Shown here in pieces: positions 6,001-12,000 of a DNA stretch of 64,000 nucleotides. A program made the position numbers. Numbering within the stretch: position 1 is the first letter of the stretch; every line of letters starts with the position of its first letter. Where the stretch lies: the NCBI RefSeq assembly GCF_058153355.1, contig NZ_CM177019.1. One strand, 5' to 3'.

Positions 6001-9000
6001 TACCAGCGGAAAGCCCGCCATTACTGGCCTTGTGCAAAAAAGTACGCAGAACATCCACCGGATACGAAACCGATACGTGGAATGCGTACCGCTCCCCCTA
6101 CTAACCCATTTCAACCCGGTAACCAGCAAGCAAACATTACGGTAAGCCAACAGACAAGCCAAACATTAAACCTAAGGCTACCCCTTCGAAGGTGCTTTGA
6201 AGGGGGGATTTAATACAGCATCTTTTTTGTGTGGCTGGTGGTGGGGATTAGCAAATTTTTGATCCTTACTACAGCATTTTTGAGCATCGTTTTTTCATCG
6301 ATTGTATGAGATATTTGGCATAGATAGACGGTAATGAACCGTGGTGAACGTTGATGAACGATGATAAGGAGATGAAACCAATGGCAGTTACTACCCTGAA
6401 CAGTGTGGCGGATTATCTGCTGTGCTTCGCTCAGGAGCACGGCGACGTAATGACGCCGCTTAAACTGCAAAAGATGGTTTTTTATGCTGATGCCTGGTAT
6501 ATGGCCTTAAATGAGGGACAGGAACTGATACCTGACCAGTTTGAGGCTTGGGTACATGGCCCGGTAGCCCGCGAACTGTATAGCCGTTTTGCTGATTACA
6601 AATGGCGACCAATTGATGAAGAAATACAGTGCCCTGAACTATCCGATGAAATTAAAAAACACCTGGATGAAATCTACCAGGTGTTTGGGGGGTACTCAGC
6701 TTATGAACTGGAACAACTGACCCATCAGGAAAAACCCTGGCTGTTAGCGCGTGAAGGTGTGCCGGCAGACGCGCCATGTCGGAATGTTATAGATAAAAAG
6801 GTAACGGCAGAGTTTTATCGTTCTATGGCATCGTGAGTATGGGAAAAGGAAGTATCAGGGCCGGGAAACTGGCCCAAAAGGGTAGCCGTATTACCGCAGG
6901 CGAAAATCATCAGGCTGTAACGACCATTAATTTTTCCTTTCGCTATATCGACGCAGATCATGAAAAATTCAGGTTTGCAGCCGAGGATTCTGCTTATTTT
7001 TGCAAGGTGCTTGACCGTCTGAAAGCTCTTTCCTCACTGACGGCTAATGAGTTTATGGCTGGGCGCAGTGCCGCCCTGAAATCTCATCCTATCGACTGGC
7101 GACACACATCTGAGCCGGAAGGCTTCACACACCTGAACGAGCAGTTTCAGAGCTATACGCCATATCAATTTGCTGTATCACGCAATGAGCATGGTCGGGT
7201 GCATGGTTTTTTTATCGGTAACGTGTTCCATGTTGTATGGCTGGATCCGCATCACCGGCTTTACCCTGGTAAATAATTTTCATGCTGGTGGTGTAATCAT
7301 CCACCAGCTTGATCACGGATAACAGGGGATGTGTAATCCCCAAGCGAGTGATAAATGTGTATAGAAATGTGTATAGAATCTATTTTAGAACTCGAGAATG
7401 TGCCTTTATTACTGGTCTTGTTGCTTGTTGTATTGTTCCCTTCGCCGCTCCAATTTATCTTCACCTCATCAATCTGCCATTTTTGCTGTATCTGATTTTC
7501 TATATTATCTTAATTCAATTGCTTCAGACTTTTCGCAATCGCTGTAACACTTCCCCATTTTTTTGTAAATAAAAGCGTTTACGCAATGCAATCCATTTGT
7601 AACAACCCAGGTAAAATACCTTATTTTCAAGTTGTTAAATAAGTGGTTATCTACGCTTTTAACAAACGATTGATGGAATCTTTGTAAGCGGCTCGCCAGA
7701 ACCGTATTGATATTTACTGAGAGCTCAGATCAACTTTCCAGGGCAACAGATCGCGTACCCGGTTTGCCGGCCAGTCCTGGATATGTTCAATGACGTAACG
7801 CAGCCACTTTTCTGGCTCCACATTGTTCAGACGGCATGTGCCGATCAGCGAGTACAACACCGCAGCATGTTCACCACCGCTGTCAGAACCCGCGAAGAGC
7901 CAGTTTTTCCGGCCTACGGCCACTCCCCGTAAGGCGTTCTCTGCGATGTTGTTGTCGATTTCCACCCAGCCATTACTGCAGTACACGTTCAGTGCATCCC
8001 ACTGTTTCAGCAGGTATGCGAACGCTTTTGCCGTGTCCGAGTGACGCGACAGTGTTTTCATCTGTTGCTGTATCCAGTCATACAGTGACTGCATCAGTGG
8101 CGCGGCTCTGGCTTTTCTTGCCGCCAGACGCTGTTCTGCTGAACAGCCCCGGACCTCTGCCTCGATGGCATACAGTTCACCGATACGCTGCAGGGCTTCC
8201 GTGGTGATGTCGGTGGGCACTCTTGCATGCACATCGTGGATTTTTCTCCGGGCATGAGCCATACATGCGGCTTCCGTTATTCTGCCGGATTCGTACAACG
8301 CCCGGTAACCACCGTAAGCATCGGCCTGAAGCACTCCGCTGTAACCGGCCAGATGATTCTGTGGATGGATACCTTTCCGGTCCGGGCTGTACGCGAACCA
8401 GACCGCCGGAGGCATTTCCGAACCGGCGTTACGGTCATCACGAACGTAGACCCACAGCCGGGCAGTCCTTGTTTTACCGCTGCCCGGCTCCTGGACCGGA
8501 ACGGGGATATCATCGGCATGGACTTTACCGGGCATCAGCACATACTGGCGCAGGATGTCATACAGCGGTTCCAGCAGTTCAGCAACAGCACCTGTCCAGC
8601 GCCCCAGTGTGGCACGGCTCAGCTCCACGCCCTGACGACGGTATATTTCTGACTGGCGGTATAACGGCAGATGGTCTGCATATTTTCCAGCGACAACATG
8701 GGCCAGAAGCCCCGCTCCGGCATAACTGCGTGCAATGGGTTTTGAAGGCACCGGAGCCTGCACGATATGGTCGCACCGGCAACAGGCCAGTTTCGGACGT
8801 TGTGTTTCGATAACCTTAAAGGCGCTGCTGATAAGCTCCAGTTGCTCTGACACATCACATCCCAGAGAACTGAGTTCGCCACCACAGGCCGGGCAGCATT
8901 CCTCTTCCGGACGGATGACCCGGGTTTCACGGGGAAGTGAGGCAGGTAACGGTTTACGGGCTGAAGACTGGCGCAGGGGAGATGGCAGTACCGGGTCATA

Positions 9001-12000
9001 TTGCTCACCCAGCGTTTCCGCCATTTCTTCCTGAAGAGCGCTGATTCGCTCCTGTGCTTCCTGTATCTGCCGTTCGGTTTTTGCACGAAGTTTTTCTGAG
9101 CTTTTACCGAACTGCATGCGCTGCAGTTTTGCAACCAGCGCCTTCAGCCGGTTGATTTCGGAAGCATAAGCCGCCACCCGCTGTGAGAGCAGGCGGTTGT
9201 ATTTCGCCATCTGGCGGATGGTGTCCTGTTGCGTCTGCAACAGTGCCCGCAGGCGGGCATTCTCATGAGCAAGTGAGGTGTCCATATCCTCACTTTACAA
9301 CGGGTTATATGCGGATGCCAGCGCGTTCCGTTCGTTTCGGGTGTTTCCAGTCGATGCCCTCAAGAAGCATGGATAACTGGGCCGGAGTAAGGTGCACCTT
9401 GCCGTCACGGGTGACCGGCCAGACGAAGCGGCCCCGCTCCAGGCGTCTGGTGAAGAGGCACAGTCCGTCACTGTCAGCCCACAACACTTTTATCTGGTCA
9501 CCCCGGCGTCCGCGGAAGATGAACAGATGCCCGGAGAACGGGTCATCCTTCAGGACGTTCTGAACTTTTGAGGCCAGGCCGTTAAAGCCATTTCGCATAT
9601 CGGTGATACCTGCAACCAGCCAGATACGCGAACCTGCAGGGAGAGATATCACCGTCTCAGCTCCTGTATAAGCAAGGACAGCAGATTTTCATTCACTGCC
9701 CCGTTCAACCGAAGGGTGCCGTTTCTGAACGTAATCTCACAGGAGATGCTGTGTATTTCCGGTGTTACTGACGGTCTTGCGGTCAGTGGCTCATTAGCCG
9801 GAGCAGTTGGGAGTTGGGCATCAATAGTGACAGGAATTAACTGAGATTCTCTGCCTGATTCTGATGATGGCAATTTTATCTTCCCCTGCCGCCATTTCTG
9901 ACGCCATTTGAACAACAGATTGGCATTAATACCATTGTCCAGGGCCAGTCTGGAAATTGAAACACCTGGCTGGAATGATGCTTCTATGAGTCGTTGTTTG
10001 AATTCAGGAGGATAATTCAGGCACCCTTTAGGCCTTCCCGGAGAGGCATTTTTTTGTATATCTGACATTTTTATCACCCACTATTAATTTAGTGGTGGAT
10101 ACTTTGTCCAAAGCATCGGGAATTTGCCAGACGGTCCTGATAAGACGCTTACGAATCTTTTATGAAAGGGAAATCTACATTAACTCTTCTGCTCGCTGGT
10201 ATATTCTCATGCGGCACATGCCAGGCGACAGGGGCAGAAGTGACGAGTGAATCTGTATTTAACATTCTTAATTCCACAGGGGCAGCAACAGATAAAAGTT
10301 ATTTATCGTTAAATCCAGATAAGTATCCTAATTATCGTCTTCTGATTCACTCAGCCAAATTAAAAAATGAAATAAAGAGCCACTATACCAAAGACGAAAT
10401 TCAAGGATTGTTAACATTAACAGAAAACACACGAAAGTTAACGTTGACGGAGAAACCCTGGGGAACGTTTATTCTTGCTTCTACTTTCGAAGATGACAAA
10501 ACAGCGGCAGAAACCCACTATGATGCTGTCTGGCTGAGGGATAGTTTATGGGGCTATATGGCATTAGTATCAGATCAGGAAAATAGGGTAGCTGCAAAAA
10601 AGATTCTGCTCACCCTGTGGGATTATATGTCTACGCCCGACCAGATTAAGCGGATGCAGGACGTCATTAGCAACCCAAAACGACTGGATGGAATTTCCGG
10701 GCAAATGAATGCTGTGCATATCCGATTTGACAGCAACTCCCCCGTGATGGCAGATGTGCAGGAAGAAGGCAAGCCGCAGCTGTGGAACCATAAACAAAAT
10801 GATGCGTTAGGTCTTTATCTTGATCTCCTTATACAAGCAATCGACACTGGTACTATTAACGCTGAAGATTGGGAAAAAGGTGACCGATTAAAATCGATTG
10901 CGCTGTTGGTTGCTTATCTGGATAAAGCCAATTTCTATGTTATGGAAGATTCCGGAGCGTGGGAAGAAGATGCCCGATTAAACACATCTTCCGTTGCACT
11001 GGTGACCTCTGGACTGGAACGTTTGTCAAACCTACTCTCGAAGAAAGACTCTGTTTTTATCTCTGATTTACTACGCGAAGCTAAAGCTAATGAACTGGAT
11101 GAACCTCTTTCAACAACGAGGTTGAACCACCTCATAGATAAAGGTTATGAAAGAATAACGTTACAGCTTGATTTAGGGGGAGAATCCCCAGGTTATCTGG
11201 AAAAAGATAAACATTACAGAGAAGCCGATGCGGCTTTACTTAATGTTATTTATCCTGCAAATCTTTCAAAGATAAATACCAGAAGAAAAGAGCAAGTTCT
11301 AAAAATAGTTAAAAAACTAGCAGGTCCGTATGGTATAAAAAGATACGAGAAGGATAATTATCAGTCGGCAAATTTTTGGTTCAATGATATTAAAACCGAT
11401 ACCGATCAAAATTCATATGCGAAAAGAGAAATGAGCTTCATACCATCAACAGAAGCAGAATGGTTTTTTGACTCATGGTATGCAAAATCAGCAGCAATTG
11501 TTTATAAAGAATCAAGAAAAGAAGAGTATTTGAATGACTCAGTGCAATTTATGAATAGATCATTGGCCCAAATAACAGGCGAGAATATGATTGGTGCAAA
11601 TGGCAGGAGTGTACCTGAAATGGCACTTCCCGAAAGCTATAACTATATCCACAAGTCGGGAACTTTGCATGAAGCGCCAAGCCCTATCATTCCGCTAAAT
11701 TGGTCGAAAGCTTCAATGACTCTCATGTTGAAAGAGATGTCCAACCTTATCAATGATGAGGGAAATAAATAGTTTTCATAATGAGGCGGTCCTGGATTAA
11801 AAGGACCGCTCAAAGAGAAATCGAAAGGGGAGGTAAAAGTGATCAATAAATTACTGTTAGCTTACCTGATAGGTCTGGTTGTGACATCGACTTTAATATT
11901 TATCTTCTCGGAAGAAAAAGTAACATATCGGTTGTTTGCTGCAATAATTACAGGTTTAACCTGGCCGCTTAGTCTCATTCCTTCCATTATAAGTCTCATG

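Follow-up and report, generated by a model that had tools for sequence, protein, structure and literature searches.

An IS66-family insertion sequence in front of the GH15-like gene ygeQ at the edge of the ETT2 island of Escherichia coli

The gene ygeQ lies at the glyU-proximal edge of the ETT2 island, and in the 64-kb stretch of Escherichia coli DNA analyzed here (the window) its start codon almost adjoins the end of an insertion sequence (IS). The arrangement raises the questions of whether the element arrived by a simple transposition, which signals the gene has lost, and what kind of IS is involved. The coordinates of the features considered are collected in Table 1.

Table 1. Features of the ygeQ locus in the window
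Feature	Position	Strand	Evidence or remark
Native ygeQ upstream region (promoter and 5' leader)	7436–7675	+	99.2% identical to and colinear with L004 8902–9151; now 2.47 kb away
Shine-Dalgarno-like GGA, weak	7675–7677	+	In the empty site, 7 nt upstream of the ATG; split by the IS
Target-site duplication, left copy, GAATCTTT	7676–7683		Abuts IS end
IS66-family insertion sequence, complete, 2,469 bp	7684–10152	genes on −	Ends, duplication, and protein profiles
IRR, terminal inverted repeat at tnpC end, GTAAGCGGCTCGCCAGAACCGT	7684–7705	+	
tnpC, IS66 DDE transposase, 523 aa, intact	7714–9285	−	PF03050, 348 bits; NF033517, 479 bits (cut-off 180)
tnpB, IS66 accessory protein, 115 aa	9305–9652	−	PF05717, NF033819
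tnpA, helix-turn-helix accessory protein, 139 aa from ATG	9649–10068	−	NF047595, 88.9 bits (cut-off 74)
IRL, terminal inverted repeat at tnpA end, GTAAGCGTCTTATCAGGACCGT on minus strand	10131–10152	−	
Target-site duplication, right copy, GAATCTTT	10153–10160		Abuts IS end
ygeQ, GH15-family protein, 536 aa, ORF intact	10162–11772	+	PF00723, 27.1 bits (gathering score 22)

Boundaries of the element and the empty site

The three minus-strand open reading frames (ORFs) of the element are all intact and correspond to TnpA, TnpB, and TnpC of the IS66 family, with scores over the curated cut-offs. TnpC also matches the zf-IS66, LZ_Tnp_IS66, and IS66 C-terminal element profiles, and tnpA and tnpB lie upstream of tnpC as in other members of the family, the GTG start of tnpB overlapping the stop codon of tnpA (GTGA, 9649–9652). 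The inverted repeats are imperfect, agreeing at 17 of 22 positions, and both open with GTAAGCG, which includes the 5'-GTAA characteristic of IS66 ends. This end pattern is found at two places only in the window, the two ends of the IS, with none expected by chance. The octamer GAATCTTT is present without mismatch on both flanks, forming a perfect duplication of the 8-bp length usual for the family, and the probability that two given flanking octamers agree by chance is ∼1.5e-5. The initial annotation had described both this duplication and a distance of 9 bp between the right end of the IS and the ATG at 10162, and the coordinates bear out the two statements, the gap (10153–10161) ending directly before the start codon (10162–10164).

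With the reconstructed junction as query, the uninterrupted site was found, spanned in one piece, in 3,962 of 5,426 complete E. coli genomes. These empty alleles carry one GAATCTTT (or GAATATTT) exactly at the position of the IS, and the exact empty-site sequence GATGGAATCTTTTATG occurs in one genome, that of strain 2020CK-00188. In the alignment with the locus of this strain (L004), L004 8902–9151 corresponds to window 7436–7683 and L004 9144–18301 to window 10153–19309, and the two colinear blocks overlap by exactly 8 bp, which are the duplication. Comparison with strains lacking the IS had been put forward in the initial annotation as a way to reconstruct the empty site; because the empty-site alleles show a single octamer at the IS site, the duplication flanks a simple insertion. 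A single, simple transposition is as good as certain for this locus.

The same insertion was present in none of the 5,426 complete E. coli genomes, as searched with the IS plus flanks and with a 240-bp junction probe, and other E. coli matches to the junction query all begin exactly at 10153. The junction is seen in an independent short-read assembly, the Logan assembly of SRR8656992, the first 27 bp of which are IS end, followed by GAATCTTT, T, and ATG; in GCA_015332025.1, the NCBI contig has its break within the duplication. The frequency of the insertion is judged from draft contigs only and possibly reflects one isolate, and the window may derive from the same isolate as the assemblies confirming its junction. 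Activity of the IS and a recent date for the event are indicated by a 99.8% identical copy elsewhere with a duplication of its own, by 95.9% identical plasmid copies, and by the intact ORFs of the IS and of ygeQ.

Upstream signals and expression of ygeQ

The PF00723 match of YgeQ is weak and covers residues 94–401, suggesting a GH15-like protein, and the N terminus contains a signal or lipoprotein-like sequence. In two other E. coli loci (L001 and L004), PGAP, the NCBI annotation pipeline, gives the gene the same length and start codon and names it "glycoside hydrolase family 15 protein" or ygeQ, and the window allele differs from that of 2020CK-00188 by nine missense changes. In the complete-genome junction search, K-12-type genomes were seen to label the gene "protein YgeQ"; in K-12 itself it is presumably a truncated pseudogene. 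The name ygeQ turns up in eight papers, in none of them in the title or abstract.

The segment of L004 that matches the native upstream region is the glyU–ygeQ intergenic region of strain 2020CK-00188. In the window, this region starts just past a remnant of the 3' end of the glyU tRNA, visible by alignment only; a tRNA scan of positions 1–13000 gave no intact tRNA, and an Rfam scan of the whole window gave OmrA and OmrB only, with nothing near the IS. Insertion changes the Shine-Dalgarno-like GGA to CGA, and the predicted pairing with the 3' end of 16S rRNA weakens from −3.3 kcal/mol in the native leader to −0.6 in the IS-joined one. The displacement of the native upstream and ribosome-binding regions, as claimed earlier, is thereby upheld, with the upstream region 2.47 kb off and the GGA split. 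As to the promoter, the term "displaced" rests on position and not on a defined promoter: a standard scan of the empty-site locus gave the glyU tRNA promoter only, and a relaxed scan of the native ygeQ upstream region gave weak 7–8/12 matches only.

In the explanation we favor, an IS66-family element of 2,469 bp transposed once, and recently, into the translation-initiation region of ygeQ, the transposase making its usual 8-bp staggered cut and leaving GAATCTTT on both sides. The native upstream region was shifted by 2.47 kb, GGA became CGA, and a TAA blocks formation of a fusion protein. The gene would be transcriptionally and translationally orphaned, and the recency of the event would account for its intact ORF. 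This account of recent simple transposition and silencing is, taken as a whole, likely correct, and the silencing itself, yielding a null or strongly reduced allele, is probable. Against silencing stands the ability of E. coli to carry out low-level translation of mRNAs whose Shine-Dalgarno sequence is poor or missing. A fusion protein reading from an IS ORF into ygeQ was considered and is ruled out by the in-frame TAA at 10141–10143, inside the IS end; a 52-aa ORF at 10092–10250 lies in a different frame from ygeQ.

The initial annotation had left expression of the gene to read-out from the IS or to a fortuitous promoter. The tnpA end of the element adjoins ygeQ and the three genes are transcribed away from it, on the minus strand, so that the transposase promoter cannot supply read-out into the gene; what stands of the proposal is an outward or antisense promoter, the only conceivable form, with one candidate. 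This candidate, CTGACA-17-TAATTT on the plus strand at 10062–10090, ∼65 nt upstream of the ATG, is a weak match (8/12) that could give some transcription and to that extent counts against silencing. No sigma-70-like site was found on the plus strand from the IS interior to the ATG at the scan threshold of 9/12, and two terminator-like hairpins lie on the same strand just inside the IS end, at 10032–10047 (followed by seven T) and 10078–10098.

If ygeQ were transcribed from an outward promoter within the terminal ∼100 bp of the IS or from a junction hybrid promoter, in place of a native promoter that, as is common for AT-rich acquired islands, was probably under repression, the insertion would keep or even raise ygeQ expression. 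The 8/12 candidate and the exchange of AT-rich DNA for a GC-rich IS (56–58% GC) beside a gene of ∼39% GC are compatible with this, but the −10 element of the candidate agrees at 3 of 6 positions only, the site falls short of the 9/12 threshold, and its transcript would still be without a Shine-Dalgarno sequence, and the 9 bp between the IS and the ATG leave no room for a hybrid junction promoter that could serve the full-length protein. Other IS types, such as IS1 (PMC8764528), are well documented to carry promoters or to form hybrid ones; the same ST131 study, however, attributes the increase in expression to IS1 and not to the IS66-family ISCro1, and it contains no example of an IS66-family outward promoter (PMC8764528). 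Retained or raised expression is therefore unlikely.

It is quite unlikely, too, that the IS lies inside the coding sequence. In the reconstructed native allele, as read from the sequence, an in-frame ATG is located 12 nt upstream of the annotated start (window 7673–7675; ATG GAA TCT TTT ATG), and its use would mean that codons 4–5 of a 540-aa protein are interrupted. Some database proteins of the same cluster are indeed longer, e.g. 549 aa, but in the two reference genomes considered PGAP picks the start that gives 536 aa, and the sole Shine-Dalgarno-like motif, GGA, falls within the alternative ORF, at the correct spacing for the downstream ATG. The functional outcome would be the same, with ygeQ severed from its upstream signals either way. 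Next to no credence can be given to a coincidental agreement of the octamers, with the IS being the sign of a bigger rearrangement, part of a composite element, or a product of faulty assembly: the one observation in its favor is that GAATCTTT is not a unique word, occurring at two other plus-strand sites in the window, whereas the flanks are colinear with one continuous empty-site stretch and overlap by exactly 8 bp, the window contains a single copy of the IS, a separate read-based assembly has the same junction, and 8-bp duplications (CACCGGAC, CCTTATTC, and AAATCATT) also flank three further copies of the type.

Relatives of the element and the ETT2 setting

The designation "ISEc8-like" given in the initial annotation is right in a loose sense, as the element belongs to the IS66 family and resembles ISEc8 proper (L0013/L0014/L0015 of E. 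coli O157:H7) in its three-gene layout and in having a comparably short TnpA. The proteins of true ISEc8 are 133, 115, and 512 aa long (PMC2762410), compared with 139, 115, and 523 aa here. In a comparison with an ISEc8-type copy that covered TnpA and TnpB, the proteins were 64 and 75% identical, respectively, and the tnpA region shared only 68% nucleotide identity. By its protein sizes and these identities, the element falls outside ISEc8 in the strict sense.

ISCro1-type elements of E. coli, labeled "IS66-like element ISCro1 family" by PGAP, share ∼97% nucleotide identity with window 7684–9651, which comprises tnpB, tnpC, and IRR. TnpC and TnpB are 98.3 and 97.4% identical to their ISCro1-type counterparts, with sizes of 523 and 115 aa in both, and the GTAAGCG ends and the 8-bp duplication are likewise common to both. 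The similarity stops abruptly at the overlap of the tnpA stop and tnpB start, and megablast shows no relationship for the 500 bp on the IRL side. The copy of ISCro1 type that was examined is 2,699 bp long and has a 225-aa TnpA, in contrast to 2,469 bp and a 139-aa TnpA here, the two TnpA proteins being 41% identical. In ISfinder practice, two elements are the same if they share at least 95% nucleotide identity over their whole length; with ∼97% identity over 7684–9651 only and a length different from that of the copy examined, the element is not ISCro1 in the strict sense either. The length of ISCro1 is given as 2,824 bp (PMC8764528), and the ISCro1-type element is the "ISEc8-like IS" of plasmid pEntH10407 (PMC2762410).

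Full-length copies with the same 2,469-bp architecture, unnamed, are found on plasmids of Escherichia albertii (e.g. pESA134_1, NZ_CP070285); they are 95.9% identical, with the duplication CCTTATTC and a TnpA 97.8% identical to that described here. A full-length copy of the same architecture on an E. coli plasmid-like contig, GCA_047897835.1, is 99.8% identical and has its own 8-bp duplication, CACCGGAC. These copies sit at other sites, on plasmids, whereas the insertion studied here is in front of chromosomal ygeQ. Judged from these alignments, the element is a rare mosaic, in which tnpB, tnpC, and IRR are of ISCro1 type and tnpA and IRL come from a different lineage, and it may merit an ISfinder name. 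It would illustrate neatly how modules of the IS66 family are exchanged where tnpA and tnpB meet. A further-reaching proposal, which we regard as rather unlikely, is that it represents an undescribed, transpositionally active IS66-family mosaic formed by exchange of a whole module, IRL with tnpA, whose boundary coincides with the overlap of tnpA and tnpB, or, alternatively, that an outward promoter at the tnpA end re-expresses ygeQ outside its native control. If the former were true, TnpA and the adjacent end would be swappable between IS66 lineages without loss of mobility.

For the gene, the insertion may provide a natural knock-out or knock-down allele for the study of an uncharacterized GH15-like putative lipoprotein, and it is a precise lineage marker, being absent from the complete genomes searched. 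It is otherwise an ordinary, strain-specific mutation and ordinary IS biology in a decaying island, with little significance outside the source strain. The window also holds a frameshifted eivA/SctV gene, by which the ETT2 region is already defective here, and the insertion would add one more inactivating lesion. The ETT2 type III secretion island has reportedly undergone mutational attrition in E. coli, as Ren et al. are said to have described in J Bacteriol in 2004. This particular insertion was found in none of the 5,426 complete E. coli genomes. Loss of a gene at the edge of the island through an IS is in keeping with that pattern of decay.

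Insertion site and its empty allele

The two ends of the insertion element directly 5' of ygeQ read GTAAGCGGCTCGCCAGAACCGT (left) and GTAAGCGTCTTATCAGGACCGT (right, reverse-complemented), identical at 17 of 22 positions, and the pattern common to both occurs at just these two sites in the 64-kb window (expected 0). The octamer GAATCTTT flanks the element at 7676–7683 and 10153–10160, confirming the 8-bp duplication proposed in the initial annotation, and the 9-bp gap to the ygeQ ATG at 10162 is also exact. The GC content of the IS is 56–58%, compared with ~39–46% for the surrounding DNA. 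The start of tnpB overlaps the tnpA stop (GTGA, 9649–9652).

Features of the IS and its neighbourhood
Feature	Coordinates	Strand	Size	Details
IS66-family element	7684-10152	genes on minus strand	2,469 bp	discrete
tnpA	9649-10068	minus	139 aa	intact; NF047595, 88.9 bits vs cut-off 74
tnpB	9305-9652	minus	115 aa	intact; PF05717 and NF033819
tnpC	7714-9285	minus	523 aa	intact; PF03050, 348 bits; NF033517, 479 bits vs cut-off 180
GhoT/OrtT-family membrane toxin-like ORF	11839-12018		59 aa	PF10753, 45 bits; just 3' of ygeQ
D5-primase-like C-terminal domain	108-833			satellite/P4-like island
SSB	1375-1797			satellite/P4-like island
ProQ/FinO	1834-2367			satellite/P4-like island
DUF2213	3714-4385			satellite/P4-like island
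SocA/Panacea antitoxin-like gene and partner ORF	6351-7276			satellite/P4-like island

Empty-site alleles, named in the initial annotation as the check on a simple insertion, were sought with 7534–7683 joined to 10161–10310, a single octamer copy being kept; one uninterrupted piece covering at least 80% of the query length was found in 3,962 of 5,426 complete E. coli genomes. The empty site of strain 2020CK-00188 reads exactly ...GATTGATGGAATCTTTTATGAAAGGG..., and strain cq9 has GAATATTT at the corresponding position. BLAST comparison of the 2020CK-00188 locus with the window gave two colinear blocks (8902–9151 matching 7436–7683, and 9144–18301 matching 10153–19309) that share exactly 8 bp, the duplication. 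Such an overlap is the signature of simple transposition, and with a single octamer and colinear flanks in 2020CK-00188 the simple insertion stands. The insertion at this site is strain-specific and absent from every complete genome compared: with the IS and its flanks as query, the best coverage in the 5,426 complete genomes was of the IS part alone, and all matches of a 240-bp junction probe in complete genomes begin exactly at 10153, none spanning the junction.

A YgeQ protein exactly matching that of the window is known from just four draft contigs of ~21 kb each, which over 7.6 kb share 99.99% identity with the window. The SRR8656992 Logan assembly starts GCCAGACGGTCCTGATAAGACGCTTAC-GAATCTTT-T-ATG, the same IS–ygeQ junction, and the NCBI contig of GCA_015332025.1 starts within the duplication, 7 bp 5' of the ATG, a break that is expected where short-read assembly meets a repeat. 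Since the window's own isolate, or a near relative of it, may be the source of these contigs, they confirm the junction without showing that the insertion is widespread.

Consequences for ygeQ

The native glyU–ygeQ interval (240 bp) now lies 2.47 kb upstream of ygeQ. Just 5' of the duplication a G is replaced by C, so that the GGA 7 nt before the ATG becomes CGA, and the predicted pairing with the 16S rRNA 3' end weakens from -3.3 to -0.6 kcal/mol; the upstream region and putative ribosome-binding site have thus been displaced or split, as originally proposed. Expression by read-out from the IS, also proposed, fares less well, since the IS genes lie on the strand opposite to ygeQ and their promoter reads away from it. 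A relaxed scan gave a single weak outward candidate, CTGACA-17-TAATTT (8/12), at 10062–10090, and at the scan threshold no sigma-70-like site was found on the + strand of 7250–10400. On the + strand, the final 120 bp of the element contain two terminator-like hairpins, and an in-frame TAA at 10141–10143 excludes a fusion protein. Judged from these sequence features, ygeQ is likely to be silenced or strongly reduced in expression.

The native allele has an in-frame ATG 12 nt upstream of the annotated ygeQ start (ATG GAA TCT TTT ATG; window 7673–7675), and if this were the true start, the IS would lie within codons 4–5; in the window this upstream ATG opens a 4-codon ORF whose stop, TAA, is formed by the last flank T and the first IS bases. 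The 536-aa start is favoured by PGAP and by the GGA position, and the outcome for ygeQ is the same with either start. Inside the ygeQ 5' end, an antisense promoter-like site, TTGGCT-16-GATAAT (9/12; 10331–10358, minus strand), a consensus match only, is shared with the empty-site strain. In the window it faces the IS at its tnpA end, and transcription from it could extend into the transposition genes.

Host and neighbourhood

The host is E. coli, since the window core at 40000–60000 (ptsP, aas, lysA, araE, and others) shares 99.0–99.4% identity with the best-matching chromosomes of that species; by this core-region comparison the strain is not among the 5,426 complete genomes searched. OmrA and OmrB, a tandem pair of sRNA genes (49794–50078; RF00079, 86 and 97 bits), lie where expected in the core genome. 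The 536-aa ygeQ ORF weakly passes the Pfam GH15 gathering score (27.1 bits vs 22), and the same-start gene of other strains is annotated "glycoside hydrolase family 15 protein" or ygeQ. It is followed 3' by the GhoT/OrtT-like small ORF, an AraC-type regulator, and genes of the ETT2 type III secretion island (secretin, gatekeeper, SctV, and SctN). The window and Logan contig L005 differ by 1 bp in an A-run at 11831. Upstream, window 1–7452 holds the right-hand portion of an integrative island, satellite- or P4-like, that terminates in a glyU tRNA 3'-end remnant, TTCCCTTCGCCGCTCCA (about 7433–7452), which is probably attR; strain 2020CK-00188 has no such island and an intact tRNA-Gly 233 bp upstream of ygeQ.

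The event is textbook IS behaviour, with an 8-bp duplication and probable gene inactivation through insertion in the 5' region. The ETT2 island is known for mutational attrition, and the insertion falls in this attrition-prone setting, where eivA/SctV (FHIPEP, ETT2 export apparatus; 15956–18015) also carries a 1-bp deletion near 17362, judged against strain 2020CK-00188, that breaks the gene into two ORFs of 509 and 208 aa. Even without the IS, the window's type III system would probably be non-functional.

Mobility and composition of the element

The IS is a rare mosaic. Full-length copies occur on four E. albertii plasmids (95.7–95.9% identity, duplication CCTTATTC) and on the plasmid-like E. 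coli contig GCA_047897835.1 (99.8%, duplication CACCGGAC); with duplications of their own, they indicate that the mosaic transposes and that the window copy is young. The GCA_047897835.1 copy (sequence L007, 5017–7485) has only 5 differences from 7684–10152, all within 94 bp of tnpB and apparently synonymous because both copies encode exactly the same TnpB protein; such clustering resembles a short patch of gene conversion, with another IS66-family copy as donor. The window target (7670–7683), GATGGAATCTTT, is similar to the one used by an ISCro1-type copy in strain 2013C-3277 (locus L002, 1498–1511), CATGAAATCATT; the other two copies examined have unrelated targets, leaving a target preference unproven.

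On every defining feature tested the element belongs to the IS66 family, so the family part of the original "ISEc8-like" label holds. Identity with ISEc8 itself was rejected: ISEc8 encodes proteins of 133, 115, and 512 aa (PMC2762410), compared with 139, 115, and 523 aa here, and the window TnpA shares 64% identity with that of the ISEc8 type. In the "ISEc8-like" element of pEntH10407 the three proteins have 225, 115, and 523 aa (PMC2762410). This type (PGAP "ISCro1 family") is ~97% identical to window 7684–9651, which holds tnpC, tnpB, and IRR, the terminal repeat at the tnpC end, with protein identities of 98.3% for TnpC and 97.4% for TnpB. The likeness ends abruptly at the tnpA–tnpB overlap, beyond which the sequences are unrelated at that level and the TnpA proteins are 41% identical. 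The remaining 500 bp, comprising tnpA and IRL, the repeat on the ygeQ side, is rare, with about 15 E. coli records at ≥90% identity; its other matches, at ~68%, are in elements with the 133-aa ISEc8-type TnpA. The position of the breakpoint suggests a swap of the whole tnpA and IRL module.
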